From: a phage
Length of the DNA stretch: 64,000 bases
Reading direction: 5' to 3' (one strand)
Sequence record: PZ445488.1
Shown here: positions 5,128 through 46,683 of the stretch, piece by piece
Numbering within the stretch: the stretch's first letter is position 1
Layout: each line of letters starts with the position of its first letter
The notes under the pieces: model-generated
Told to the model about the DNA's origin: nothing
Database searches by the model: none
What the model saw: the letters and a program-made list of their open reading frames with translations, nothing else
Position numbers and translations under genes: made by a program

Positions 5128-7839
5128 TCAAAAATCGAACATATCGAACAGAGATGCTTTCTTCTCGTAATCGAGTTTCGCTGCTGATGTGAATCCTTCA
5201 AGTGGTTTAATAAATGTCTTCTCAAGGAGAACAGTGTAGTCCATCCAATGAAGTACGTCGTCTTTAATTAAATCTGTGATTTCAGTACCAGAAGGCCATG
5301 CGATACATTTATCACCGAATGGGTTTCCATCACGTAAAGGCAGAACGTATACCTTTTCGCCTTCTACAACTTGTGGAGCATCAATATTACCTTTGATAGC
5401 TCTGTTATATGTCAGAATTCCACGAATATGGAACGGGCATTTAGGACCAGGGAATCCACCAACGTCATATTTAGCAATGTTATTCGCAGAAGATACCGAC
5501 GCGATGCTAATATAATTCAATTGACGGAATTCTTTTTCAAACTCTTTAAAATATTCTTGTAATGATTCTTCACCTTCTTGAAGCATACGACGAATACATT
5601 CTTTAAGAGCTTTCTGTACTGCTTTAGGGGTCGAAGATTTCTGTGTTTCGAGACCCATGATTTTGAGTTTAGGCTCAGCGTATCTGGTTCCTTCCATATC
5701 CCACACGTTTAATGCATAACGTTTCTTACCAGTCCAGAATCCACCAATACCTTTAGAACCGAGTGGAGGACCAGCAATAGCTTCTCGGTCCATGAACATC
5801 AAATGTTGCTTATTATTCATGTATTCACACATTTCACGGAAACCTCTATCAATAGCCGGTTCCATACGTTCACGAGCAAACTTATCTAAGAAGTCTACCC
5901 AATGGTTGGTATCACGGAATTTAGATTCACCAACCTTATCGATAATTTTATCAGCAGATACGTAAATAGAGTCTGTATCACCATAAAGAACGAAAGCTTC
6001 ACCTTCTGTACCACAAACTTCATTCAGATATTCATTAACTTTACGTTCAATCCACTGTAAAGCCATTTGCCCGAATGTTGTGATTGCAGTAGCATTACGC
6101 AAATCATAATAACGGAACCAAACGTTACCAAGTGCACCATAAAGCGAGTTGATGAGCAATTTACGGTTAATTTGTGCAGTCATACCTGCAACTTCAGTAC
6201 GTTGAGCTCTAAACAACATTTCATTAAGAGATTTAGCAGACAACTTTTTAATCTTTTCTTTAATCTCGTCAGTGAAGTCGAAACGATAATCAACATCTAA
6301 TGGTTCGTCAACAGAAAGATTAGGATTATGTAACGCCTCTTTAATTATTTCACCATTACGTTGAGCCGCAAGCATATAACCTTTATGTTCTTTACGTTGA
6401 TTAAAGACCTTAGTGATTTCAGTTGGAACTACACCATCACGGTCTTTATAATACATCATGCCGTTAGGAGAGCAACTGTACACATCTGAAGGACGTTCAG
6501 CGATTGCGTTAATATAATCATGCAATGGAGCTACTTTAAACGTTCCTGCTATTGTTTCTGGGCTAATATTCACTTGGCGAATAATACTTGGATACAGAGA
6601 TGTAAGGTCGAAACTCATTACATATTTGTATCGATTTGGAATAGGTTCCTTAACAAAAGCGCCAGGATAAGGTTGAACCGGGTGAGAACGACCTTGTGGA
6701 ATCACCTTGTTCTGCTCTTTAAGGCTATTAAAAATAATAGCATCCCATGTTTTAATTGGGCTGAACACAGATTGAATCTGTATCTTAGCATAATAACCCA
6801 TGTCCAAACTCAAGTTGATGAACTGGCGCTTAGCATCAATTTGCAATACACGATACACGTCGATAATGTTATAAGAAATATATCGTTGGTGATTGCTTTC
6901 ACGAAGCTTAGAAATAGGGCCGTCATATTTCAGTTTACCGACATTCAATTCAAATTCTGAAATGTAATCCAGAGAATACGACGGTTGGTTTGTGAAAGAG
7001 AATTTTTTGTAAAGGTCAATGTAATCAAGAACAGAAATACCGAACAATGTAATGATTTCACGAGAACCATACATGTTTTCGATAACTTTAACACGAGTTT
7101 TACGATGTGGTGATAAACGTTTCGCAGTAGATTCGCCAAAAATATTCTTGATTCGGTTATACACATATGGAATATCAAATGACTCAACGTTCCATCCGGT
7201 TAAAATGACAGGAGTTTTCTGTTGCCAGAAGTTGAGATATTCCATCAACAATTCTTTTTCGTTATCGAACGGCATATAAATGATTTTATCGATAATTTCG
7301 GATGGAACTTCATCACCACCTTGTTCTTGAAGCTTAGCCGCAATTTCGATAGACCATTCTTCTACATTACCATATGGAGAATTCAAAAGGTCGAATACGT
7401 AGAACCTGTCGTCAATTGAGTCATAATGGGTGATAGCATCAATCGGATGTTTTGCTTGTGACGGCTCAGGGAACCCATCCGGAGATGTTACTTCGATATC
7501 GAAGTTAGCCACACGAATTTTTGTATGGTCGTATTTGATTTCATAGTTATAAGTGTCAGACAAATACGACAATTTGAAATCGTCCATACCTAATGCTTCA
7601 AGACCGATATCTTCCATGCGTTTAATCCATTGGGAGGCATCACGCATATTAGCGAACAACTTACGAGTACACGGCTTACCGTAGATATCGAAATATTTCG
7701 TAGCCTGACTTTCTGGACAATGAGCAAACAATGATGGTTTATATTCTACTTCACGAGTACGTTCACGGCCATTAGAATCGATGTAACGTTCAAAAATTGA
7801 ATCACCAATCTGTTCAACCGTTAAGTAAAATTCTTTCAT
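5128..7839 (-). CDS. 43: DNA polymerase gp43 (family B, with 3'-5' exonuclease)
   Basis: 903 aa; N-terminus MKEFYLTVEQIGDSIFERYIDSNGRE and motifs YGDTDS and KILLNSLYG-like match the T4/RB69 polymerase (RB69 gp43 is 903 aa, from memory); ATG at 7839. Confidence 0.97.
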   Translation of the reverse strand: MKEFYLTVEQIGDSIFERYIDSNGRERTREVEYKPSLFAHCPESQATKYFDIYGKPCTRKLFANMRDASQWIKRMEDIGLEALGMDDFKLSYLSDTYNYEIKYDHTKIRVANFDIEVTSPDGFPEPSQAKHPIDAITHYDSIDDRFYVFDLLNSPYGNVEEWSIEIAAKLQEQGGDEVPSEIIDKIIYMPFDNEKELLMEYLNFWQQKTPVILTGWNVESFDIPYVYNRIKNIFGESTAKRLSPHRKTRVKVIENMYGSREIITLFGISVLDYIDLYKKFSFTNQPSYSLDYISEFELNVGKLKYDGPISKLRESNHQRYISYNIIDVYRVLQIDAKRQFINLSLDMGYYAKIQIQSVFSPIKTWDAIIFNSLKEQNKVIPQGRSHPVQPYPGAFVKEPIPNRYKYVMSFDLTSLYPSIIRQVNISPETIAGTFKVAPLHDYINAIAERPSDVYSCSPNGMMYYKDRDGVVPTEITKVFNQRKEHKGYMLAAQRNGEIIKEALHNPNLSVDEPLDVDYRFDFTDEIKEKIKKLSAKSLNEMLFRAQRTEVAGMTAQINRKLLINSLYGALGNVWFRYYDLRNATAITTFGQMALQWIERKVNEYLNEVCGTEGEAFVLYGDTDSIYVSADKIIDKVGESKFRDTNHWVDFLDKFARERMEPAIDRGFREMCEYMNNKQHLMFMDREAIAGPPLGSKGIGGFWTGKKRYALNVWDMEGTRYAEPKLKIMGLETQKSSTPKAVQKALKECIRRMLQEGEESLQEYFKEFEKEFRQLNYISIASVSSANNIAKYDVGGFPGPKCPFHIRGILTYNRAIKGNIDAPQVVEGEKVYVLPLRDGNPFGDKCIAWPSGTEITDLIKDDVLHWMDYTVLLEKTFIKPLEGFTSAAKLDYEKKASLFDMFDF

Positions 7840-19929: not shown

Positions 19930-21743
19930 TGGTGTTTAACCCTATGCATGATTTCTTTATTTTTACCGAGATTAAATCCGCGTTCGTTCGGATTTCCAAG
20001 ATAACCGCATGTTCTTCTTATGGTGTTCATCTTTTTAGGATCAGTTTCTCCACAAACTGAACAAACAAATCCGTTTTCAGTAGGAGTCATTTCATGGGTA
20101 CTTCCACACGTAAAACATTTATCTACTGGCATATTAACACCAAAATAATCTAAATGTTGTGCAGCATAATCCCACACAGCCTCAAGACCTTTTAGGTTAT
20201 TTTTCATATCAGGAAGTTCAACATAAGAAATGTGACCACCTGTCGCAATGAAATGATATGGCGCTTCACGAGAAATCTTTTCAAACGGAGTAATATTTTC
20301 TTCTACTGAAACATGGAAACTATTAGTGTACCAGCCTTTATCAGTGACATCCTTTACACTTCCATATTTTTCTGTATCAAGTTTACAGAAACGATAACAC
20401 AAGTTTTCAGCAGGAGTAGAATATAAACTAAAAGCAAATCCAGTTCTTTCAGTCCACTGTTTAAGATGAGCATTCATTTTAGTTAAAATTTCTTGTCCAA
20501 TATCACGACCAACAAGAATATTCAATTCATGAATACCAATATATCCTAAAGACACTGAACTTCTACCGTTTTTAAATAACTCAATTATATCATCGTCGGG
20601 TTTAAGACGAACACCAAATGCACCTTCTTGGTAAAGAATAGGAGCAACAGTAGCTTTAACTCCTTTTAAGGAACTAATTCTACACATCAAGGCTTCAAAG
20701 CACAGATCCATTCGTTCATTAAATAACTCAACAAATTTCTGTTCATTGAACTGTGTTCCAATATAAGAATCTAACGCGATGCGAGGAAGATTCAGTGTTA
20801 CAACACCGAGATTATTACGTCCATCAAGAATTTCATTACCAGTCGAATCTTTCCATACACTCAAGAAACTACGGCAGCCCATTGGAGAAACAGGAATAGA
20901 TGAGCCGGTGATAGCTTTATTATTCTTAACAGAAATAATGTCAGGATACATTCTTTTGCTTGCACACTCTAGAGCGAGTTGCTTAATATCATAGTTCGGA
21001 TCGTCTTTATAAAGATTAACACCCTCTTCGACAAACATAACAAGTTTAGGGAAAATAGGAGTTATTCCATCACGACCAAGACCTTTAATCCGATTTTTCA
21101 GAATTGCTTTCTGAATCATTCGTTCGGTCCAATCAGTTCCAGTACCAAATGTAATTGTTACAAAAGGCGTTTGCCCGTTTGAACTAAAAAGAGTATTTAC
21201 CTCATACTCATAAGCTTGAAATGCGTCATATACATCTTTTTCTGTTTTAGATTGAGCATAATTCAGAATGTCTGGTATTTGCCATTTTTCTGCATCTTCA
21301 ACATGTTTAGCGTATGTACGTTTAACATAAGGAGAAAGAACTTTATCGACATTCGCAAATGTAGTTCCGCCGTACTGATGTGAAGCAACTTGTGCAGTAA
21401 TTTGTGCCATAATTGCAGTAGCAACACCAATCGATTTAGGCGTTTCAATTTGAGCATTGCCCAATTTAAATCCGTTCTCAAGCATCCCCTTTAAATCGAC
21501 TAAACAGCAATTGGTAAACGGAAGAGCAGGAGAATAATCAATATCATGCATGTGGATAATTCCACTTTCATGCGCATTCATAATAAAAGACGGGACCATA
21601 TTTTTGGCAATGTGCTTAGACACAATACCAGCCATAAGGTCCCGTTGAGTTGGAAAAACACGAGAATCTTTATTAGCATTCTCGTTCAAAAGATCTTTAT
21701 TAGTTTTATAAATTAATCCTTCAATTTCTTTTTCAATTTTCAT
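19926..21743 (-). CDS. nrdD: anaerobic ribonucleoside-triphosphate reductase NrdD
   Basis: 605 aa; C-terminal Cys cluster (CFTCGSTHE...CSVCG) and glycyl-radical motif RTCGYLG. Confidence 0.95.
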   Translation of the reverse strand: MKIEKEIEGLIYKTNKDLLNENANKDSRVFPTQRDLMAGIVSKHIAKNMVPSFIMNAHESGIIHMHDIDYSPALPFTNCCLVDLKGMLENGFKLGNAQIETPKSIGVATAIMAQITAQVASHQYGGTTFANVDKVLSPYVKRTYAKHVEDAEKWQIPDILNYAQSKTEKDVYDAFQAYEYEVNTLFSSNGQTPFVTITFGTGTDWTERMIQKAILKNRIKGLGRDGITPIFPKLVMFVEEGVNLYKDDPNYDIKQLALECASKRMYPDIISVKNNKAITGSSIPVSPMGCRSFLSVWKDSTGNEILDGRNNLGVVTLNLPRIALDSYIGTQFNEQKFVELFNERMDLCFEALMCRISSLKGVKATVAPILYQEGAFGVRLKPDDDIIELFKNGRSSVSLGYIGIHELNILVGRDIGQEILTKMNAHLKQWTERTGFAFSLYSTPAENLCYRFCKLDTEKYGSVKDVTDKGWYTNSFHVSVEENITPFEKISREAPYHFIATGGHISYVELPDMKNNLKGLEAVWDYAAQHLDYFGVNMPVDKCFTCGSTHEMTPTENGFVCSVCGETDPKKMNTIRRTCGYLGNPNERGFNLGKNKEIMHRVKHQ

Positions 21744-22213
21744 TTTAAACTCTTTCTAAGCTGCTTTTTGAATGAAGCTATTAATTGTGTTTTAGTATCA
21801 GATTCATTATATTCAAATCCTCTTTGAAGCATCTCAGTCATCATTTCCTCTTTACCTAGTCTTGAGAACTCTTTAGTTTTGTCTGGAACAAAATTAGGAT
21901 GGATATTATTATCAGAATAATCTTGTTTCAAATAAGCAAGAAGAGCTTCAAGCCATTCGAGGTAGTCGACATCACGACCTTTAAGACCAGAACGGTTGAA
22001 CTTATGCTTCATTTGGCCTTCTGCTGCGTTGCACAGATTACAGAGTAATCCACGAACTCTACCGGCTTTTGGCCCGTTTAACTCGTGGTCGTGGTCAAGA
22101 TGGTTACCTTGAACATCAGGGTCTAATTCACGGTGGCAAATAGGACACTTACCGTTCTGTGCATCATAAAATTTTTGTTTTTCTTCTTTATATTTTGCGC
22201 CTGATAATAACAT
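21740..22213 (-). CDS. 49: endonuclease VII (Holliday-junction resolvase) gp49
   Basis: 157 aa; zinc and active-site motifs CPICHRELD...HLDHDHELNGPKAGRVRGLLCNLCN; ATG at 22213. Confidence 0.9.
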   Translation of the reverse strand: MLLSGAKYKEEKQKFYDAQNGKCPICHRELDPDVQGNHLDHDHELNGPKAGRVRGLLCNLCNAAEGQMKHKFNRSGLKGRDVDYLEWLEALLAYLKQDYSDNNIHPNFVPDKTKEFSRLGKEEMMTEMLQRGFEYNESDTKTQLIASFKKQLRKSLK

Positions 22214-22926: not shown

Positions 22927-23223
22927 TTATTGTTCTACCCAGGCACAGGAAACTTCGAAATCAGGACCACCGTATTCCCAGTGATATTCACCAACAGGAA
23001 TCCAGTCACCGTGCTCGTTTTCTTCATAGTCCTCAGCCTCAAGGCCAACGAATCGCCATTGGACACCGATGATTCGATTACCCATTAATATATGAAATTC
23101 ACCCCATGGATTATCGATAGCATATTGGATATCGTTCTTAGCACGAGAACACATTTCTTGATATAACAAAGCTTCTAATTCGCCCTGATCATAAGGGCCC
23201 GGGAAAGTTAAATCAATACTCAT
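22927..23223 (-). CDS. hypothetical protein (98 aa)
   Basis: ORF track. Confidence 0.5.
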   Translation of the reverse strand: MSIDLTFPGPYDQGELEALLYQEMCSRAKNDIQYAIDNPWGEFHILMGNRIIGVQWRFVGLEAEDYEENEHGDWIPVGEYHWEYGGPDFEVSCAWVEQ

Positions 23224-23483
23224 TTAAAATATTCTCGTAGTTGGTCAAATCCACCAATATGACTTCCATCAGGAGCAAATACTTGAGGCATAGTCAATCC
23301 AACTTGTGATTCACGTCCAAGCTTAACCAGAAGCTCAGCAATTTTCTCATCATCAAAAACACCTTTTTCTGGCATAACATTAATGAATTCGAATGGCTGT
23401 TTCTTAACAGTCAGCAATCGTTTCGCATTATCACAATAAATGCATTTATGAATAGTAGAGTCATACCCGTACACTTTAAACAT
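23220..23483 (-). CDS. nrdC: thioredoxin/glutaredoxin NrdC
   Basis: MFKVYGYDSTIHKCIYCDNAKRLL...GGFDQLREYFK matches T4 NrdC (87 aa) from ATG 23483; the track start 23498 adds MKGKI. Confidence 0.85.
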   Translation of the reverse strand: MFKVYGYDSTIHKCIYCDNAKRLLTVKKQPFEFINVMPEKGVFDDEKIAELLVKLGRESQVGLTMPQVFAPDGSHIGGFDQLREYFK

Positions 23484-23889
23484 TATTTTTCCTTTCATCG
23501 ATTAAATATGCAATGCCAAATACAATACATGTAATAAAACCTGTGATACAGATAGAAACCAACAACACTGTACCAAAGAACCAAATCAAGTTATTTTTAG
23601 TAGTTTGTTTGATATCCATCTCACGAATTTCTATAGCTATCGTATCACCTTTATTCAGAAGCGTATAAAACGACGGTGATACACGCCTGTCAAAAACTCG
23701 TCCTTGCTCATCTTTATAGACTGCAATAAATTCTAATTTAGAATATTTTCCTGTAGATTGGCCTGAGATTAATTCCACTACCTCCACAGGAATTACTTTA
23801 GTTTCCATGTAAGTATTCTGACTGTTCCAAATGAATGGAATAATGGCAAAAACTAAAGCTGCGATAAAACAACGAAGGCTATATCTCAT
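23476..23889 (-). CDS. membrane protein (137 aa)
   Basis: ORF track; N- and C-terminal hydrophobic segments. Confidence 0.5.
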   Translation of the reverse strand: MRYSLRCFIAALVFAIIPFIWNSQNTYMETKVIPVEVVELISGQSTGKYSKLEFIAVYKDEQGRVFDRRVSPSFYTLLNKGDTIAIEIREMDIKQTTKNNLIWFFGTVLLVSICITGFITCIVFGIAYLIDERKNNV

Positions 23890-24194
23890 TATAATATTCT
23901 CTCAAATTTGTGGAAGCATTTACGGCATTTCAATTTCAAGTTATCAGTGGTCCAGTTAACCAGTTGGACTTGGATAGTTCCACATTCCGGGCATGGATGT
24001 TTTGCTGCTGATTTGGCAGCATTTTCACGTCGTTCAACCATTTTCATTATTTCGTTCCATGCCGGAGGAACGAACTCTTCTTCACCGTGGATTTTATCTC
24101 GCTGAACAAATTCAATCTTTGAACTATCGTCAATAAACTTAACCAAGCAGTGGTTAGTGTTCATATCAATATCCTCTAAAAGACGTAGTTTCAT
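23889..24194 (-). CDS. zinc-ribbon protein (101 aa)
   Basis: ORF track; CPECG...CRKCF pair near the C-terminus. Confidence 0.5.
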   Translation of the reverse strand: MKLRLLEDIDMNTNHCLVKFIDDSSKIEFVQRDKIHGEEEFVPPAWNEIMKMVERRENAAKSAAKHPCPECGTIQVQLVNWTTDNLKLKCRKCFHKFERIL

Positions 24195-25144
24195 TATAAC
24201 ACCTCAATGGCATTTCGTAAACCATCCGCTTTTGCATTCAGAGCTTTTAATGATTTAGTTTGTTCTGCAATCTGGGCTTCGACTTCTTTCAGACGTGATT
24301 TGAGGTATTCACGTTCTTCGCTCAGGTTATCAACCTTTTCTGCTTTAGGTTCTTTAATAGGCTTAGACTTAAACACATTAGGATTCTTCAGCTTAATTCG
24401 GGTGCGAGAACTATATAACATTGAACCGTTATCTTCGGATTCGTCGAACGTTTCAACAACATCCATAGTCTCTAACAATGTAATAAGTTTATAAGACAAT
24501 GAACGAACGGTTTTGTTATGCTTATTAATTTCTTCAGCTTTCATGGTACCGAGATTACGTGAGTAGTAATAAGGAACCTGGATATCAATTGATAATGATG
24601 CGTTACCATTACCGGTTGGTTTGAATACTGCAGTAACCCAATCTTTAACATGAACTTTATTTGTACGGCCATCACCGCCAGTGAATAATTTACGAGAATG
24701 TTTAAAAAGCATATTCACTTGGTTATTGAATTCACAAGCAAATTTATCAGCAAATTTAGTTTCAGGAATGGTAGATAACCAATCAGCCAAATGAGTCTTT
24801 TTAACATCATTAACAATAGTGAATTCAACCAAATCGGTTTTAGATGTCACAGATTTAATAAAGCTCGGCTTCATAAAGTTTTTAATGTTATCGCGAGCTA
24901 CAGTAGAAGATAATAAACGAGAACGTTTGAACCATTGAAGCAGTGTCCCTAATGAATGAGAATACGCATTCTGAGTATCTTTACAGATATGATTTTCTTG
25001 ACCTGTGTATGTACCAAAATCGCGAAGAATACCACTTACTACATCTCGGTGTGGAACATCAAATCCTAGTGCACCAACAGCGCGCTTGGCATGAACGTTA
25101 GCGATAAGACCGGCAAAGTATTCAATGTAATGTGAACGTGTCAT
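24194..25144 (-). CDS. hypothetical protein (316 aa) with C-terminal coiled coil
   Basis: ORF track; ATG at 25144; first of three similarly sized genes, each preceded by a palindromic promoter. Confidence 0.55.
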   Translation of the reverse strand: MTRSHYIEYFAGLIANVHAKRAVGALGFDVPHRDVVSGILRDFGTYTGQENHICKDTQNAYSHSLGTLLQWFKRSRLLSSTVARDNIKNFMKPSFIKSVTSKTDLVEFTIVNDVKKTHLADWLSTIPETKFADKFACEFNNQVNMLFKHSRKLFTGGDGRTNKVHVKDWVTAVFKPTGNGNASLSIDIQVPYYYSRNLGTMKAEEINKHNKTVRSLSYKLITLLETMDVVETFDESEDNGSMLYSSRTRIKLKNPNVFKSKPIKEPKAEKVDNLSEEREYLKSRLKEVEAQIAEQTKSLKALNAKADGLRNAIEVL

Positions 25145-25173
25145 AATATTTTCCTCTCGTTAAGATAGATTCA

Positions 25174-25202
25174 TTATACTCCAACCATCCTTGGTTGTAA
25201 AC
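25174..25202 (-). promoter_or_regulatory. early promoter (GTTTAC, 17 bp, TATAAT) with palindromic spacer CAACCAAGGATGGTTG
   Basis: Minus strand reads GTTTACaaccaaggatggttggagTATAAT; 26 bp shared with the copy at 26193..26221. Confidence 0.5.
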
Positions 25203-25206
25203 CGTT

Positions 25207-26166
25207 TTATGATTTTAATGCATTCATTGCATTAAAAAGTTTAGAATACTGCAACTGGAGATTCGTTACAACACTTTGAGCATCACGAAGCTTAGCTTGT
25301 GCTTTGTCAAGTTCAACGGACAGTTGGTCCATAGTGGCCTTGATTTGATTGTAATGGTAATCTTCGACCGGAAGAAGGTCATTAGAAACATTTAGTTTTA
25401 CTGCAGACAGTTTGCACACATTTGGCAAACCTTTAAACATTGATTTACCCGAAGTAGAATATGAACCTAGAACTTCAGCATTACCAATTGGGGTTGCAGT
25501 AATTGACGCTTCAAATGTTGCATTTTCCTTTTTAAGATTTTGATAGTATTCAGAGTCTTTGTGCCACCATGGCGCAGGAACCTTTTTACCAATAGATACA
25601 CGAGCCTGGATAGCGATATGGCCCTTATTCTTGATAGGGTCGATAATATTAAGCTCACGAGAATAAATTGCTTTAATCTGGTGGATATTATCACCTAAAA
25701 CTTCCAACGCTTGGTGGAATACACGAGCAACGTTATCATTCTTAGGTTTATACGTAAGAGTGAACTCGTTCTCACTGATAACCATGATTTCCAACTTATC
25801 GTAAGTATATTTCAAATGTTTCATGTTAATTGCTTGAGGACGAATACGAGAAGCAATGGCCATCAGATTGTTAAGGTTATTCCGGAACTGCTTAGCGAAA
25901 TATTGTCCTTCACCGCCAATACAAAAATTACGAAGTTTCTGTTTGGCTAATAAACGGCTGAACTCACCATTTTTAATGAACTCTTTAACGGGCGTGTTAG
26001 TAACACATTCAAATTGAGTAAACATACGAGAAGTAATCCCATAATACGAACAGACTTCCTCAATCTCTTCAGGAGTTTTTACAGGCATACGGATAGGATT
26101 AGGTCCTGGAGTATATGCGTTCGAGGTAAATTCTTTGATAAGTTCTCTACGTGTAATAAAAGCCAT
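25207..26166 (-). CDS. hypothetical protein (319 aa) with C-terminal coiled coil
   Basis: ORF track; ATG at 26166. Confidence 0.55.
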   Translation of the reverse strand: MAFITRRELIKEFTSNAYTPGPNPIRMPVKTPEEIEEVCSYYGITSRMFTQFECVTNTPVKEFIKNGEFSRLLAKQKLRNFCIGGEGQYFAKQFRNNLNNLMAIASRIRPQAINMKHLKYTYDKLEIMVISENEFTLTYKPKNDNVARVFHQALEVLGDNIHQIKAIYSRELNIIDPIKNKGHIAIQARVSIGKKVPAPWWHKDSEYYQNLKKENATFEASITATPIGNAEVLGSYSTSGKSMFKGLPNVCKLSAVKLNVSNDLLPVEDYHYNQIKATMDQLSVELDKAQAKLRDAQSVVTNLQLQYSKLFNAMNALKS

Positions 26167-26192
26167 TTTATATTCCTCATGTTGAAAAATTT

Positions 26193-26221
26193 ATTATACT
26201 CCAACCATCCTTGGTTGTACA
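26193..26221 (-). promoter_or_regulatory. early promoter (TGTACA, 17 bp, TATAAT), paralog of 25174..25202
   Basis: Identical 26-bp core attatactccaaccatccttggttgta. Confidence 0.45.
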
Positions 26222-27217
26222 TCATTCCTTAAGAAGTTTTACTACTTGAATAAGATTAGCTCGTTCTGTTTTATTTTTACCATTTAAGCCTGCTAATCGT
26301 GAGATTTCATCGTCAGTCTGTTGAATAGTTACATTAAGTTCGTTAATCAAAGCTTCAAAGTATTTGATTTGCTCAGCATGTTTTGATTCAAATTTCTGAA
26401 CCGGAATAACGTCTTGGTTCAGTTCATCAATAAGGTCTTTAAGAGCATCTTCTTGGTTGATATCATATTCAACTTCTTTTATTTCTTCAACGAGCTCGTC
26501 TTTATATCTAACGTCTTTTAGTCCTGGAGCTGGTCCTGAAATCTCTTCTTTAAGAGTACAAACATACCCAATACGGTATCCAATGCCGTCTCGCTTGATA
26601 TCAACTTCGTCGATAAATCCACAATGTTTAAGACCAGAGCCGATTATGTCAAAATATCCTTGACGTCGTCCTTCAAACGTTACACGAACTACTAAGACAG
26701 TTTTACCACCAACCTTTTGAAGCTCACATTTATAAAAGTCTGTTGAACCTGAATAACGTGGATGAGTTTTAAAGTTCATCTGACGATCTAGGCCCATTTG
26801 TAAACGTGCTGTTACGGCCATAAAACGTGTTTGGTTCTCGTTAAGATGAGCAACAATCCATTTCAAAGGCATTTTACACTGTTCACGACCGAACAAATCA
26901 GTACGTCCTAGATTACGCAGGATATTGTTAGAGTTAATCATCGACAGAACGTTAAGTTTATTCAGCGCGCTGAAGATTCCATCAGCCATTGATTTTCCAT
27001 AACCTTTACACGCTTTAATAAGTGCTCGCGGCAGATTAGTATAGATTTCAGACGGCATATGAAAATCAAATTTACTAGTCAGTAATTGATGAACTTGGAT
27101 AGCAATTTGCTCATAATTAAGTGCTCTGCGATCGTTATGGTCTTTAAACCACACTTTAATCTGTGAAGCACATAAACCGTTAATTTCATGTTTTACCGCA
27201 TCAGATGTAATACTCAT
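26222..27217 (-). CDS. hypothetical protein (331 aa) with C-terminal coiled coil
   Basis: ORF track; ATG at 27217; preceded at 27253..27276 by a degenerate copy of the CCAAGGA(T/C)GG promoter element with a shortened spacer. Confidence 0.55.
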   Translation of the reverse strand: MSITSDAVKHEINGLCASQIKVWFKDHNDRRALNYEQIAIQVHQLLTSKFDFHMPSEIYTNLPRALIKACKGYGKSMADGIFSALNKLNVLSMINSNNILRNLGRTDLFGREQCKMPLKWIVAHLNENQTRFMAVTARLQMGLDRQMNFKTHPRYSGSTDFYKCELQKVGGKTVLVVRVTFEGRRQGYFDIIGSGLKHCGFIDEVDIKRDGIGYRIGYVCTLKEEISGPAPGLKDVRYKDELVEEIKEVEYDINQEDALKDLIDELNQDVIPVQKFESKHAEQIKYFEALINELNVTIQQTDDEISRLAGLNGKNKTERANLIQVVKLLKE

Positions 27218-27279
27218 AACTATTTCCTCAGATTGAATTGGAACTCAAAACCATTATAACCCGTCCTTGGGTAAAGCGT

Positions 27280-27807
27280 TTATGCGTGAACCGTCTTTAA
27301 ACGTTCTTCAAATTTCCGAAGAGTACTAATACGTTCTGCTTTCTGTTTTGTATAGTTTGCAATACGTTCTGAAGTGAGAGCGTATCGTTCGTTTACTGTT
27401 TCTTTCATGAAGTCAGGGATTTCACGAGAAGCTTTAATTTCATCAAACTTGTCGAGTACTGCCTGGTCTTCAGCGATTAAATTTTCATACATCTCGATAT
27501 CTTTCTTGATAAACTCGATATCTTCCTGAGTTACTTTGGATAAACGAGATGCTTTATCCTTTTTGTACTGCTCGTTAGTTTCACGAGACCAGAATAATGT
27601 ACGTTTTTTGTTAGTGTTTTTGTAGACTTCCACAATTCCAACTGAATCGATGATAACAATCCAATTCCAGCGAGATTTGAAAATCTGACCTCCATCCACG
27701 GTAATCTCGTTACCATAAGCAACGTCATTAAAGAACTTGCTCTGTGCTTCAGATTTAAATTTACCGTCGTTATAATTTACCAGGTTGAAAATATCTTTAG
27801 CGTTCAT
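27280..27807 (-). CDS. hypothetical protein (175 aa)
   Basis: ORF track; ATG at 27807 with GGAGGTAAAAC RBS. Confidence 0.55.
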   Translation of the reverse strand: MNAKDIFNLVNYNDGKFKSEAQSKFFNDVAYGNEITVDGGQIFKSRWNWIVIIDSVGIVEVYKNTNKKRTLFWSRETNEQYKKDKASRLSKVTQEDIEFIKKDIEMYENLIAEDQAVLDKFDEIKASREIPDFMKETVNERYALTSERIANYTKQKAERISTLRKFEERLKTVHA

Positions 27808-28290: not shown

Positions 28291-29292
28291 TTATTTCAGT
28301 AAAGTTACTTCAGAGATTTCCTCCCAACCATCTTTATCAGTTGAAATAAAATCTGCTACATAAAGAGCCGTACGTAATGATACATTGCGAAGACGAGATA
28401 CGTTAGCCTTCATCCAGGACAATGCTTTGTACGTTTCAGCATCAGTCAAGCCACGTTTCTGCATCATGTCAGTAGATAATATTACATCTTCAACTCGAAC
28501 CATAATCTCTTCATTAGAGTGTACTCCAAGGTCCAAATACACTGAACGAGATACTAAAGCTTGAAGGTGTGGAGCAAGTTTCGAACCGCGTTCTAACTCT
28601 TTATCAATATCAACGTTTGTAATGAAAACGATAGTACCTTCAAACTCAAATTCTTTATCGATACCCTTATCCTCGAGATAAGATGACGCAGTGCTCCAAC
28701 AAACTTTGCGTTTATCTCCGGTATCTAATGCTGCTTTAAGAAGGTTCAGGATGTCCATATCTGAGAATACGTCAACGTCATCGATTAAGAGAACGCTGTC
28801 TTCATCACGGTTGAGCCAAAGTTGTTCGTAAAGGCCAATACCGGAGATTTTACCATTAATGCTTTTGTATTTGATGAAACCATTATCATTAGCATTATTA
28901 AGTGCTTTATCCAGAGAATACGTCTTACCAATACCAGCTGCACCTGAAATAATGAGTGAACGAATTTTGCCATCAATAATGCCATTCGTCATCATGTTCA
29001 TTACTTTAAAGCGTTTGTTGATACGAGTTTTCATATCTTCAGTGCTTTCAACAACTGCAACTGGTGACGTCTCAACTCCTTCCATTACGATGTCTGATTT
29101 GAAGACCCATACTCCACGTTCAGAACCATCAATCATAACGAAAATTTTACCGTCACCTAAGTGGGAACATTCAGGATTAAGCTTTGCCGGGAACCATGTC
29201 TTTGTGGCAACATAAGAACCAGAGATTTCGTTATTACGATAGATACCTTTTTTGATTTGAACGTTGAACATTTTATTCTCCAATTTACTCAT
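28291..29292 (-). CDS. P-loop NTPase (AAA-like ATPase)
   Basis: 333 aa; Walker A GAAGIGKT and Walker B LLIDDVD; ATG at 29292. Confidence 0.6.
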   Translation of the reverse strand: MSKLENKMFNVQIKKGIYRNNEISGSYVATKTWFPAKLNPECSHLGDGKIFVMIDGSERGVWVFKSDIVMEGVETSPVAVVESTEDMKTRINKRFKVMNMMTNGIIDGKIRSLIISGAAGIGKTYSLDKALNNANDNGFIKYKSINGKISGIGLYEQLWLNRDEDSVLLIDDVDVFSDMDILNLLKAALDTGDKRKVCWSTASSYLEDKGIDKEFEFEGTIVFITNVDIDKELERGSKLAPHLQALVSRSVYLDLGVHSNEEIMVRVEDVILSTDMMQKRGLTDAETYKALSWMKANVSRLRNVSLRTALYVADFISTDKDGWEEISEVTLLK

Positions 29293-29338: not shown

Positions 29339-29367
29339 TACTTTTTAAAAATATTTTAACCCCCTAA

Positions 29368-29385
29368 GGGGACCCGAAGGTCCCC
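29368..29385 (-). terminator. UUCG-tetraloop hairpin GGGGACC-UUCG-GGUCCCC (terminator or stability element)
   Basis: 7-bp GC-rich stem 3' of the 29390..29656 gene; near-identical hairpins at 47276..47291 and 7898..7917. Confidence 0.4.
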
Positions 29386-29389
29386 ACAT

Positions 29390-29656
29390 TTACTTATCAC
29401 ACTTAGCAACATAATTAGGCATATCACAGAATACAGAGCGAGTAACTACTCGTCCCTTTGACCATGCTTCAGTTGCTTGTCCGGCCGTGCTATTAATATA
29501 GCTTGATTTAATGTTCTCAATACCCTGAGAATGTGATGCATTTACCGAACCGTTAGAAGGCGCAGGAGCCGGTGGTAACCAGTCTCCTGCGCCCGTGGTA
29601 GCACCAACAGAGAATGCCATCATTACTGCGAATAAACCAATTACTAATTTTTTCAT
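29390..29656 (-). CDS. small secreted/periplasmic protein (88 aa, signal peptide)
   Basis: MKKLVIGLFAVMMAFSVGATT... signal-peptide-like N-terminus; ATG at 29656; a late promoter motif lies 28 nt upstream. Confidence 0.55.
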   Translation of the reverse strand: MKKLVIGLFAVMMAFSVGATTGAGDWLPPAPAPSNGSVNASHSQGIENIKSSYINSTAGQATEAWSKGRVVTRSVFCDMPNYVAKCDK

Positions 29657-29683: not shown

Positions 29684-30673
29684 CTATTTATAGTAAGAAT
29701 TATGATTTTCGAGATAGACTTGCTCAAGGAAATCATCCCAGAAACTCATATCTACTTTTTGTTGCATACCATTCTTGGCAGCTTGTTCTGACGCATGTTC
29801 AACTTGGTCAACGATATCTTCTAGGAATTCTTGTACAGTTTTAAACGTATGTTTACCAAGCTTAACATCGAGAATAAATGGAGCATCTTGAAGTGGGTAA
29901 ACCAGGTCGCCGGTTTTGTAAATTTCCAATAATTGAAGTCCACCACGACATGCATGACTCAATGCTTTCCAGTCAATACCTTCGTTAGCTTCTGCCTTAC
30001 GAGCACGTTCACCATAGTTCTCTTCCAGTTTAACCAGGATGGCATTGAACTCTTTATTGGTTAACGTGTCTTGGAATTTACGGTCTAACAGATTATAGAA
30101 TGTTTGCTTACCTGTTTTCTCGTTTTCGGTTTCAACCCACGAAGCAAATTCACCTACAGGCAGAACATTCTTCATATGTGATAAACGAATTACTGCACCA
30201 TTATCAAAGTATTGTCCCCATTCATTAGAACGTTTAAGGGCTTGACGAAGAACAGCCAGTCGAGAACCCTTGACACCGTATTTAGAAGCTTGCTTACGGA
30301 CATACCCTAAATAAGATTTCATGTTAGTGGTATAGAAACGAGACCTGTTATCTTGAATATACTTCCATACATCAGGCAAATCAGATTTAACTACTAGACT
30401 TGGTGGAGTGTGAAGCATATCTAATGCGACGGTTTCACCATCCGCAGCTAGTTTAAAGAAATATTTGAGACTATACAACTCATGGTCTACGTCGTCTTTT
30501 GTGTTCTTAGAAGATGTGTTATTCGTGTTCTTGCTCATGTGTTCTTTAACGTTACCGGTCAAGATATCACGAGCATGAGGGACATAAATTTCTTTAAAAT
30601 CGACGTCAGATTCAGGAGTAGACGTTCCATAAAGGTGGCTACCAAAGTAGCTTTTCATAATTGTTTTCATCAT
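29684..30673 (-). CDS. predicted nucleotidyltransferase (Pol-beta superfamily GS...DxD motif)
   Basis: 329 aa; N-terminal YFGSHLYGTSTPESDVDF fits the minimal nucleotidyltransferase signature. Confidence 0.5.
   Translation of the reverse strand: MMKTIMKSYFGSHLYGTSTPESDVDFKEIYVPHARDILTGNVKEHMSKNTNNTSSKNTKDDVDHELYSLKYFFKLAADGETVALDMLHTPPSLVVKSDLPDVWKYIQDNRSRFYTTNMKSYLGYVRKQASKYGVKGSRLAVLRQALKRSNEWGQYFDNGAVIRLSHMKNVLPVGEFASWVETENEKTGKQTFYNLLDRKFQDTLTNKEFNAILVKLEENYGERARKAEANEGIDWKALSHACRGGLQLLEIYKTGDLVYPLQDAPFILDVKLGKHTFKTVQEFLEDIVDQVEHASEQAAKNGMQQKVDMSFWDDFLEQVYLENHNSYYK
29685..29692 (-). promoter_or_regulatory. late promoter motif TATAAATA (minus strand)
   Basis: Exact T4 late-promoter octamer 28 nt upstream of the 29656 ATG, overlapping the end of the upstream gene. 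Confidence 0.45.
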
Positions 30674-35045: not shown

Positions 35046-35584
35046 TCTTTTATTTCCAGTAGTTTATTTGATTTAAGGTAATTAGCCTTTTCTAGGACTT
35101 CAGAAGCATATTTACTTCCAGCACTTGTCTTCCATCCCGCATTATATGAGGATATAGCTTTTCTTATATCCCCGTTATGTATATTTAACCAATAAGAAAA
35201 TTCGATATAAGCCCATCTTGCTGAATTAGACCGCTTAGATAGCATTTTCTTAATTTGGGCATCAGTCATATTATAACCAAGCTGGTTAATTCTTGCCCTC
35301 ATTGTTGGTAGATAGTTTTGGAACATTCCATACGCATGGTGACCTTTCTTATCTTTAAGATTAATACCTGCGGATGATTCTTGCCATAGTATTGCGGCCA
35401 TTATGTATCCAAGTCCTTTCTTATGCATATTTTCATGCGTTTTAAATTTTCCGTCCTTAGAAAACTGTTCCCCAAACTGATAAGCATAATTCAAGTTATC
35501 GAGTTGGACATTACTAAAAGTATGCTCGGAGCTATGTGCTGATAACGAAAGAGCAAATAGACCAGCGAGTAGTGCTTTTCTCAT
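35042..35584 (-). CDS. periplasmic lytic transglycosylase (SLT domain)
   Basis: Signal peptide MRKALLAGLFALSLSA; SLT motifs AAILWQESSAG, AYGMFQ and YNAG. Confidence 0.65.
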   Translation of the reverse strand: MRKALLAGLFALSLSAHSSEHTFSNVQLDNLNYAYQFGEQFSKDGKFKTHENMHKKGLGYIMAAILWQESSAGINLKDKKGHHAYGMFQNYLPTMRARINQLGYNMTDAQIKKMLSKRSNSARWAYIEFSYWLNIHNGDIRKAISSYNAGWKTSAGSKYASEVLEKANYLKSNKLLEIKE

Positions 35585-35592
35585 GTTTACCT

Positions 35593-36051
35593 CTAGATTT
35601 TAATCACTGCTTTAGAAGCTTTTCCTGGTAGTCGTTTACTGTTAATAATAGCCATTCTGCATTGAAGAGTCTTCATTTTGAATGCTGGATTTTCGCGACA
35701 GACTGTAAGTCCTAACCAAAGATTTCCATCAGTTATTTCTAAACGGCCTGGGCGATATTCGACACCTTCGACAAAATCTTCATCAACATCTGGACGTGCC
35801 GGCATTGATAAAAATTCTGCAACTTCTTTAACATGATTTTTTACTTTATGAAATAATTCAAAAACGTAATTCTCATCTATTTCTCTCTGGATGGCACGAT
35901 CTAAGAGATGTTGAGAATACTTGATATGAAAGCCTGGTAGTCCAAGAGACTTTGCAGCATCTTTTATACCGGCATTTATTTTGCGGAACTCCGTTTCAAA
36001 GATTCGACGGAGTTTATTACGGCGGATAAAAACTTCCGAATTGATAGACAT
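35593..36051 (-). CDS. regB: site-specific endoribonuclease RegB
   Basis: MSINSEVFIRRNKLRRIFETEFRKIN...YSQHLLDRAIQREIDENYVFELFHK... matches T4 RegB (about 153 aa); ATG at 36051. Confidence 0.85.
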   Translation of the reverse strand: MSINSEVFIRRNKLRRIFETEFRKINAGIKDAAKSLGLPGFHIKYSQHLLDRAIQREIDENYVFELFHKVKNHVKEVAEFLSMPARPDVDEDFVEGVEYRPGRLEITDGNLWLGLTVCRENPAFKMKTLQCRMAIINSKRLPGKASKAVIKI

Positions 36052-36079: not shown

Positions 36080-36108
36080 ATAGTAACACAACTAGAGGAG
36101 AAGTAAAC
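36080..36108 (-). promoter_or_regulatory. early promoter (GTTTAC, 17 bp, TACTAT) with the -10 in the loop of a 10-bp palindrome (CCTCTAGTTG/CAACTAGAGG) that also contains the regB RBS
   Basis: Minus strand reads GTTTACttctcctctagttgtgtTACTATagacctgtcaactagaggagaaatcaaaATG. Confidence 0.5.
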
Positions 36109-38970: not shown

Positions 38971-39000
38971 ATAGTATCAAAGTCCTTGGAGGAAGTAAAC
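38971..39000 (-). promoter_or_regulatory. early promoter (GTTTAC, 18 bp, TACTAT) inside palindrome CCTCCAAG/CTTGGAGG that contains the denV RBS
   Basis: Minus strand reads GTTTACttcctccaaggactttgaTACTATacattcatcaactacttggaggaaattATG. Confidence 0.5.
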
Positions 39001-46397: not shown

Positions 46398-46625
46398 TTA
46401 TTTTTTAATCAAATTAACATAAAACTTGGCGTCTTCCGGGTGCATTCCTTCGCAGTATTCTTCAACCATGAACTTCTTAACAGCTTCATAAGGACCACTC
46501 AGATTAAGCTCAGTTGTCCAGAACTTGGAATCTTGTACTGAATCGATACGAACTTCAGGGTGACGGTTGCGAATAACTTCTTCTGTGTATTCATAATCAA
46601 CGACATCAATACTAACTTTAGCCAT
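46398..46625 (-). CDS. hypothetical protein (75 aa)
   Basis: ORF track; ATG 46625 with AGAGGAGAAAC RBS. Confidence 0.45.
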   Translation of the reverse strand: MAKVSIDVVDYEYTEEVIRNRHPEVRIDSVQDSKFWTTELNLSGPYEAVKKFMVEEYCEGMHPEDAKFYVNLIKK

Positions 46626-46654
46626 TTTGTTTCTCCTCTTGATTTGATAGGTCT

Positions 46655-46683
46655 ATAGTAACACCGTCCATGGTGTTTGTACA
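46655..46683 (-). promoter_or_regulatory. early promoter (TGTACA, 17 bp, TACTAT) + GACCTATC arm
   Basis: Minus strand reads TGTACAaacaccatggacggtgtTACTATagacctatc. Confidence 0.45.

Follow-up and report, generated by a model that had tools for sequence, protein, structure and literature searches.

We analysed a 64,000-nucleotide stretch of phage DNA (sequence record PZ445488.1), hereafter the window, and focused on three consecutive open reading frames (ORFs) together with the promoters and hairpins that precede them. The ORFs lie on the minus strand and are labelled here by the length of the encoded protein: w316 (24194-25144, 316 amino acids), w319 (25207-26166, 319 amino acids) and w331 (26222-27217, 331 amino acids). 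A preliminary description of the locus had placed them exactly so. The intergenic spaces before the three genes are 62, 55 and 62 bp long, respectively. As identified from its sequence, the window derives from a Mosigvirus, an RB69-like phage of the T4 type. Around the locus, 3.4 kb match a fragment of Escherichia phage CEV1 with 100% identity and many Mosigviruses with 96-98%.

The genes w316 and w319 are each preceded by a predicted early promoter of the sigma-70 type. Upstream of w316 (25173-25201, minus strand), the -35 element TTTACA (25196-25201) and the -10 element TATAAT (25173-25178) are separated by a 17-bp spacer. This site matches the consensus at 11 of 12 positions, the best score in the 7 kb scanned, and transcription is predicted to start near 25166. 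The w319 promoter (26193-26221, minus strand) has TGTACA (26216-26221) and TATAAT (26193-26198), also 17 bp apart. Here, 10 of 12 positions match, the predicted start is near 26186 and the -35 element directly follows the w331 stop codon. These are the two best sigma-70-like sites in the region scanned, and both fit TTTACW-N17-TAYWAT, given as the T4/PST early consensus by Comeau et al. (2014). The 16-mer CAACCAAGGATGGTTG occurs in exactly two copies, one in each promoter (25182-25197 and 26202-26217, minus strand). With up to two mismatches allowed, shuffled sequences gave 0.08 matches on average and none of 100 shuffles gave two. The two promoters had been described as sharing 26 identical bp. 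The shared stretch, TACAACCAAGGATGGTTGGAGTATAAT, is in fact 27 bp long (25173-25199 and 26193-26219). A further promoter-like site, TTTACG-17-TATAAT with TG before the -10 element, lies within the last w316 codons (24193-24221, minus strand). Its -10 element overlaps the w316 stop codon and the start of nrdC.2 (TATAATG).

The promoter upstream of w331 belongs to another class. It had been taken for a third copy of the same promoter with a shortened spacer and, indeed, only 13 bp separate GCTTTA from TATAAT. However, this gap is wrong for a -35/-10 pair but right for a MotA box, which stands 12 +/- 1 bp from the -10 element. Hence, the short spacer indicates a change of promoter class and not a defect. 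The predicted MotA-type middle promoter (27253-27279, minus strand) reads aACGCTTTA-CCCAAGGACGGGT-TATAAT. The MotA-box-like sequence occupies 27272-27279, the -10 element 27253-27258, and the start is predicted near 27246. Our -35/-10 scan did not detect this site. By flank and sequence, the region is the orthologue of the T4 nrdC.8-nrdC.7 intergenic region (CCGCTTTA-TACCAAGGATGG-TATAATGG), which holds the mapped MotA-dependent middle promoter PnrdC.7 (start site 53325). In a coordinate check, the T4 -10 hexamer ended seven bases upstream of this start; the T4 GenBank records have no promoter features annotated. Common to PnrdC.7 and the w331 cassette are the nrdC.8 3' flank, the GCTTTA core of the MotA box, a spacer of 12-13 bp, TATAATGG and a hairpin located within that spacer. 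The differences are two compensatory stem-pair changes, the status of the promoter, whose activity here is predicted, and the downstream gene, which is nrdC.6-like rather than nrdC.7. In T4, nrdC.7 comes after nrdC.8, whereas in Mosigviruses an nrdC.7-like membrane protein gene (23476-23889, minus strand) adjoins nrdC. Consequently, the PnrdC.7 orthologue would drive the nrdC.6-like gene. Given the MotA-type spacing and the orthology to PnrdC.7, we rejected the alternative that the w331 promoter is a degenerate early promoter.

All three promoters contain a hairpin in the spacer. Hairpin 1 (25182-25197, minus strand) is an exact palindrome, CAACC(A)-AGGA-(T)GGTTG, 10 nt after the w319 stop codon. 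Hairpin 2 (26202-26217, minus strand) is identical. Hairpin 3 (27259-27272, minus strand) has the sequence ACCC-AAGGAC-GGGT and lies between the MotA box and the -10 element. Hence, the single palindromic core proposed for all three promoters is found in copies 1 and 2, while copy 3 lacks the 16-mer and has a related hairpin instead. The hairpins lie 4-10 nt past the stop codon of the upstream gene. They are also upstream of the predicted start of their own promoter and so would be present only in read-through RNA.

We compared 14 distinct variants of the hairpin, with seven different stems, in an alignment of 22 columns. The variants were taken from T4, HP3, ACG-C40, ESCO47, F2, AV110, WG01 and 15 IMG/VR loci, and span Tequatrovirus, Mosigvirus and Dhakavirus loci. 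The stems are CAACC/GGTTG, CATCC/GGATG, CTTCC/GGAGG, ACCC/GGGT, TACC/GGTA, CCAC/GTGG and AGCC/GGCT. All 14 variants enclose AAGGAT or AAGGAC closed by a C-G pair, giving the invariant context C[AAGGAY]G. The stem is paired in 92.9% of alignment cells and four of the five pairs have changed on both sides. The covariation score was 0.611, compared with 0.147 in shuffles, and none of 500 shuffles scored as high. When the partner was slid by 1-3 columns, only 23-53% of cells were paired. Equivalent positions illustrate the compensatory changes. After nrdC.8, the window has ACCC/GGGT and T4 has TACC/GGTA (two changes). Before nrdC.3, the window has CAACC/GGTTG and T4 has AGCC/GGCT. The CTTCC/GGAGG variant keeps its pairing only via G.U on the sense strand, an observation in favour of RNA over duplex DNA. 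In all seven intergenic RNAs that we folded, the hairpin was part of the minimum-free-energy structure. A search of Rfam gave one sub-threshold chance match only.

The hairpin is not confined to the nrdC array; we rejected that possibility because copies occur elsewhere. In T4, at about 2444 on the minus strand, CTTTACCAC[AAGGAT]GTGGTATAAT is of the same hairpin class and lies between gene 60 and rIIA.1. In the window, a related cassette at 46654-46683 (minus strand) reads TGATGTACA-AACACC[ATGGAC]GGTGT-TACTAT. It stands before a 75-amino-acid ORF (46398-46625) and has the left flank AATGATGTACAA in common with copy 2. A hairpin with the same AAGGAY loop, AGTTTTCT[AAGGAC]GGAAAATT, is found at about 35440-35475 (minus strand), just downstream of regB. 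It is conserved in T4 (ATTTTCT[AAGGAT]GGAAAAT, about 62145), yet is intragenic, being inside the vs.1 coding region.

The two copies of the 27-bp direct repeat are 1020 bp apart on the minus strand, bracket w319 and offer homology for recombination. We checked for w319 across related phages. All three genes are present in 132 phage records. In 21 records w319 is absent and the w331-type gene is joined directly to w316; AV110, F2 and ESCO47 were inspected. The single intergenic region of AV110 consists, base for base, of the left flank of copy 2 followed by the 27-bp repeat and then by the right flank of copy 1. F2 has the same arrangement. In ESCO47, the junction carries a hybrid hairpin, CAACC...GGATG, with the 3' arm that is found in Dhakavirus WG01, consistent with recombination of two stem variants inside the hairpin. 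Hence, w319 is a real presence/absence cassette, and the identical 27-bp repeats are shown to be the exact endpoints of this natural polymorphism.

The genes had also been described as likely horizontally exchanged accessory genes. This holds insofar as repeated promoter cassettes precede dispensable accessory genes and w319 is exchangeable. However, the block is mostly old resident sequence and not recent foreign cargo. Writing C1 to C8 for nrdC.1 to nrdC.8, gene order is C8-C7-C6-C5-C4-C3-C2-C1-nrdC in Tequatrovirus, C8-C6-C5-C4-C2-C1-nrdC in Dhakavirus and C8-C6-(C5)-C3-C2-C7'-nrdC in Mosigvirus. The order nrdC.8-C6-C5-C4 or C3-nrdC.2 is thus kept in three genera, which argues for mostly old, fast-diverging resident sequence. 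Across the block, alleles are strongly diverged, with local mosaics. For instance, nrdC.11 of F2 (166-1179 of the stretch examined) is 94% identical to that of T4 and sits beside Mosigvirus-type nrdC.10 to nrdC.3 (77-98%). By these identities, it is a between-genera mosaic junction. In ACG-C40 (5805-6216 of the stretch examined), nrdC.5 and nrdC.3 have been fused by a natural deletion, which leaves the start of the former joined to the final 72 codons of the latter. A 299-amino-acid protein found in three contigs, P0052, was matched by both the NrdC.3 and the NrdC.5 seed searches and may be a natural NrdC.5/NrdC.3 chimera similar to the ACG-C40 fusion. The deletion and P0052 indicate a block that is dispensable and recombines readily within itself.

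Cassettes of this kind have been described before. PeSLs, which combine an early promoter with a stem-loop, were defined on intergenic cassettes that recur in the hyperplastic regions of RB49 and phi1 (Arbiol et al. 2010). Briefly, the reported parts run from the upstream stop codon through a sigma-70-like promoter and a stem-loop to a Shine-Dalgarno sequence and an ATG (Arbiol et al. 2010). The stem-loop is most commonly described between the -35 and -10 elements or overlapping the latter, and crossovers are reported inside the elements (Arbiol et al. 2010; Comeau et al. 2014). The concept was extended to the T4/PST and KVP40/nt-1 pairs, and to MotA-type PmSLs (Comeau et al. 2014). In the window, two of the promoters are early and sigma-70-like and the third has a MotA box plus a -10 element. 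All three carry a covarying hairpin in the spacer. They occupy spaces of 55-62 bp in the hyperplastic nrdC region, with the -35 element abutting or overlapping the stop codon and a Shine-Dalgarno sequence and ATG downstream. Furthermore, as expected from the PeSL model, 21 records lack w319 and the AV110 crossover is inside the cassette. Mini-circles arising from recombination of neighbouring cassettes also belong to the description of PeSLs and PmSLs; for the two identical copies here, such a circle would measure 1020 bp. At the sequence level, the elements therefore have every feature that defines PeSLs and PmSLs, and the arrangement has already been described as this kind. As with PeSLs, repeated copies flank dispensable ORFs, and indels in close relatives cross over inside the cassette. 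In contrast, the stems in the window are short, are not G/C tracts and have no terminator-like tail. A second difference is the loop context, C[AAGGAY]G, which is invariant while the stems covary. Published stems have the forms GN-loop-CN, AGNA-loop-TCNT and A3-4G3-loop-C3T3-4; in the portions of that literature drawn on here, no conserved loop is described.

The proteins had been called unrecognisable. This was wrong; they are homologues of T4 NrdC.3, NrdC.5 and NrdC.6. The w316 protein, which has a globular N-terminal region and ends in an amphipathic helix at the C-terminus, is the T4 NrdC.3 orthologue. The two are 57% identical over their full length (E 1e-119; phrog_1435). Homologues of NrdC.3 were found in 654 phage records, nearly all from coliphages and their relatives, and fall into three allele groups (about 56%, about 75% and >=90% identity to w316). 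The w319 protein is NrdC.5-like and matches the Pfam family DUF7235 (PF23882) over profile positions 1-307, the full length (E 1e-121; 406 bits against a gathering cut-off of 30). T4 NrdC.5 matches the same profile, also at full length (E 5e-126, 421 bits). Directly compared, w319 and T4 NrdC.5 are distant homologues (24% identity, E 1e-11). We found w319 homologues in 161 records, and an IMG/VR scan with the NrdC.5 profile returned 5 loci. The w331 protein belongs to the NrdC.6 family (phrog_2257), with 29% identity to NrdC.6 of T4 (E 1e-18) and 32% to that of WG01 (E 5e-26). An exhaustive HMMER search for w331 among 1.84 billion proteins gave 6 cluster representatives and no remote link. By these counts, the three families are narrow. 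All three proteins are in PHROG families with no assigned function.

We looked for similarity to structural or replication proteins, which would have contradicted an accessory role, in Pfam, PHROG, PDB, NCBIfam and PADLOC and found none. The profile searches of PDB, NCBIfam and PADLOC gave nothing significant. A Foldseek search of BFVD with the w316 model recovered its own family only, the other matches having TM-scores of at most about 0.3, which are not interpretable. The C-terminal coiled coils that had been predicted for all three proteins receive weak support. The best heptad-amphipathic windows are at the C-terminus in each case, w331 being weakest by our crude in-house score. In low-confidence AlphaFold models, w319 (residues 267-318) and w316 (275-315) have a long single terminal helix. 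However, matches to Pfam coiled-coil families were all sub-threshold. A C-terminal amphipathic helix with a similar tail is a feature of the NrdC.3, NrdC.4, NrdC.5 and NrdC.6 families. The annotated T4 nrdC.6 (275 amino acids) appears frameshifted near its 3' end (about 5996-6100 of the NC_000866 stretch, minus strand). The alternative frame runs ...ISIQQYDDEIFRLSGLSSKAKSEREKLIKIVDLLKS*, matching both the 295-amino-acid NrdC.6 of HP3/ACG-C40 and the w331 C-terminal helix. Hence, the T4 reference appears to contain either a real frameshift or an error, and the terminal helix is absent from nrdC.6 as annotated.

Similar sizes, similar cassettes and C-terminal helices with comparable ...L..A...LLK-like tails raise the possibility that the three genes are tandem paralogues, derived by duplication of one promoter-plus-gene unit. 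We compared family profiles built from T4, HP3, WG01 and ESCO47 plus retrieved proteins using hhalign. Homology was found between NrdC.3 and NrdC.4, in the N-terminal 210 columns (97%, E 1e-11). For NrdC.4 and NrdC.5 the signal was borderline (85%, E 7e-6), but fell to 29% once the C-terminal helix was trimmed. NrdC.6 had no detectable homology to NrdC.3, NrdC.4 or NrdC.5, and pairwise BLASTP found no similarity among w316, w319 and w331. Furthermore, the two identical cassettes bracket one gene and do not mark a duplicated unit. We consider an origin of the three genes by such duplication unlikely.

One member of these families, T4 nrdC.5, has a demonstrated role in counter-defence. It is an early gene, and its expression made E. 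coli carrying dsr1, a sirtuin defence gene, infectable again by a T4 deletion mutant (Srikant et al. 2022). A literature search for later work on the mechanism of T4 nrdC.5 found none. Like T4 NrdC.5, w319 is a full-length DUF7235 protein of similar length with a C-terminal helix, is encoded in the same neighbourhood and is dispensable. In contrast to w319, which has its own early promoter, T4 nrdC.5 follows nrdC.6 with no promoter between them. The preliminary description had suggested anti-defence or host-takeover functions. Because w319 and T4 NrdC.5 are in one family, and T4 NrdC.5 allows infection despite Dsr1, the anti-defence suggestion has a concrete precedent.

Our interpretation, which we hold with good but not full confidence, is that the locus consists of three self-contained expression modules in the hyperplastic nrdC region, each an accessory gene behind a compact cassette of the PeSL/PmSL type. 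Each gene would be expressed from its own promoter, either early or during the middle period. In RNA read through from upstream, the hairpin would mark where the preceding cistron ends. A factor reading the exposed GGA could then bind the hairpin and insulate or down-tune the downstream module. Through homologous recombination between cassettes, modules could be dropped, acquired or exchanged while the adjacent ones stay intact. The encoded proteins are putative host-range or counter-defence factors and, by analogy with T4 NrdC.5, w319 probably acts against Dsr1-type sirtuin defence. The cassette elements and the gene families are of kinds already known. What is new is the exact position of the recombination junction, the switch in promoter class at the third cassette and the covarying hairpin with an invariant GGA loop. 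The locus is a clean natural example of T-even accessory and counter-defence genes behaving as units, each with its own promoter, that are added and removed by recombination. The crossover itself can be seen, exactly placed, within the 27-bp repeat. Only one gene in the block has a demonstrated function, and the exchangeable unit is its distant relative. The NrdC.3, NrdC.5 and NrdC.6 families also make a short candidate list for host-range screens.

Concerning the hairpin, we favour an RNA structure that is read by a protein and would tell read-through transcripts from promoter-proximal transcripts. T4 is known to sort such transcripts by RNA structure at genes e, soc and 49. The strict conservation of the GGA loop over seven stems suggests that this PeSL stem-loop is more than a generic attenuator. 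As candidates for what acts on the loop, we rank host CsrA first, plain attenuation second and RegB third. The CsrA consensus obtained by in vitro selection (SELEX) is RUACARGGAUGU, with GGA in a hairpin loop and ACA 100% conserved. The structural consensus for CsrA/Rsm is A/U-CANGGANG-U/A. The invariant positions of the phage hairpin (C, A, G, G, A and G) all coincide with specified positions of CANGGANG, and the variable Y falls on its N. All 14 variants present GGA in the loop of a short hairpin that matches CANGGANG; the loop AUGGAC of the 46654-46683 cassette fits as well. The T4 copy upstream of nrdC.4, CCACAAGGAUGUGG, matches 10 of the 12 SELEX positions, and ACAAGGAUGU is read only in the T4 copies upstream of nrdC.4 and rIIA.1. 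The likeness to CsrA/RsmA sites is a short stem presenting an ANGGAN hexaloop closed by C-G. However, the phage hairpins are candidate sites by sequence, and they lie 3' of one cistron, within a promoter, rather than in the leader of their own mRNA. A literature search for CsrA binding to T4 mRNAs found nothing. That the hairpins are binding sites for host CsrA, or for another reader of loop GGA, on read-through early transcripts only is a tentative proposal with the odds against it. If it is true, the same gene could be treated differently according to which promoter made the RNA, or abundant early RNAs could soak up CsrA. A post-transcriptional regulator of the host would then be tied to how counter-defence cassettes are expressed.

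Several observations weigh against the modular interpretation or the role given to the hairpin. Promoter activity in this phage is a prediction based on the sequence and the T4 orthologue. As structures, the hairpins are weak; whole intergenic RNAs fold with about -7 to -14 kcal/mol, and the z-score was below -2 for two of the seven. A terminator scan found neither a T-run 3' of the hairpins nor a terminator-like site there. Hence, the classical terminator role of PeSLs is not evident, and we rejected the palindrome as an intrinsic terminator. ANGGAN hairpins are not enriched in T4 1-66 kb (11, compared with 9.9 in shuffles), and AAGGA is a Shine-Dalgarno-like sequence as well. The ACA that precedes GGA in CsrA ligands is absent from the window copies (CCAAGGA). 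As for the proteins, both AlphaFold2 models are poor (mean predicted local distance difference test score 39.8 for w319 and 51.1 for w316); the input alignments were shallow and held close relatives only. The sole functional datum in the three families concerns T4 nrdC.5. With only 24% identity between w319 and T4 NrdC.5, the anti-Dsr1 activity may not carry over.

The simplest alternative to a protein-read hairpin is that it is just the terminator or attenuator part of a classical PeSL, the loop having no reader of its own. Its position directly after the upstream stop codon is that found in PeSLs, and an RB49 PeSL stem-loop is reported to lower the expression of lacZ to about the same extent as the rrnB T1 terminator (Arbiol et al. 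2010). However, the stems here have only 4-7 pairs and lack the T-run, and an invariant C[AAGGAY]G over seven stems would be needless in a pure stability element. We regard attenuation alone as unlikely. The hairpin might instead be a site for the phage endoribonuclease RegB. Cleavage of early transcripts reading through from upstream would then fall at GG|AU within the loop, and also at GGAG after copies 1 and 2. RegB is described as cutting GGAG or GGAU in early intergenic regions, and as efficient on small RNAs when GGA is unpaired and the fourth base constrained. The A[AGGA]U loop has this geometry. In addition, the window encodes RegB (35599-36051, 77% identical to that of T4), and GGAGUAUAAU follows hairpins 1 and 2. 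These copies have GGAU in the loop and GGAG just 3' of the hairpin. In contrast, the fourth base is C in the third copy and in many relatives, and is never G; GGAC is no reported RegB target. RNA is also described as usually protected from RegB by secondary structure. Taken together, cleavage by RegB is quite improbable.

Two further readings concern the loop and the palindrome themselves. The loop might serve as a Shine-Dalgarno-like decoy or standby site. Alternatively, the palindrome could act as double-stranded DNA, either as an operator to which a dimeric regulator binds or as a structural element in the spacer. It is always in the spacer, 0-5 bp upstream of the -10 element, in early, middle and late-like promoter contexts. 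However, the half-sites vary freely while complementarity is kept, the centre AAGGAY is asymmetric and one variant pairs only through G.U. The distance from loop to -10 element also varies, from 2 to 9 bp. We give this last reading almost no credence and retain the protein-read RNA hairpin as the favoured one.

The surroundings of the locus confirm its placement in the nrdC region, since the window encodes gp49, nrdC, NrdC.10, NrdC.11 and regB. Synteny with T4 extends from gp49 to nrdC.11. In order of transcription, the genes are nrdC.11, nrdC.10, nrdC.8, w331, w319, w316, nrdC.2, the nrdC.7-like gene, nrdC and gene 49. All are on the minus strand. The first, nrdC.11, occupies 29684-30673 and nrdC.10 occupies 28291-29292. 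Directly upstream of w331 is nrdC.8 (27280-27807) and directly downstream of w316 is nrdC.2 (23889-24194). The nrdC.7-like gene is between nrdC.2 and nrdC (23220-23498), and gene 49 lies at 21740-22213.

Elsewhere in the window, the spacers of early promoters at 36107 and 38999 (-35 start, minus strand) are complementary to the Shine-Dalgarno region of the downstream gene. The pairs are TCTCCTCTAGTTG...CAACTAGAGGAGA before regB and TCCTCCAAG...CTTGGAGGA at 38999. Here, the ribosome-binding site could be masked in read-through transcripts, which would not be possible in promoter-proximal ones. Finally, a G+C-rich palindrome at 29358-29385, GGGGACC-CGAA-GGTCCCC, has T-runs on both strands and lies between nrdC.10 and an 88-amino-acid ORF (29390-29656). 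Of all sites in the 7 kb scanned, this one alone looks convincingly like an intrinsic terminator.

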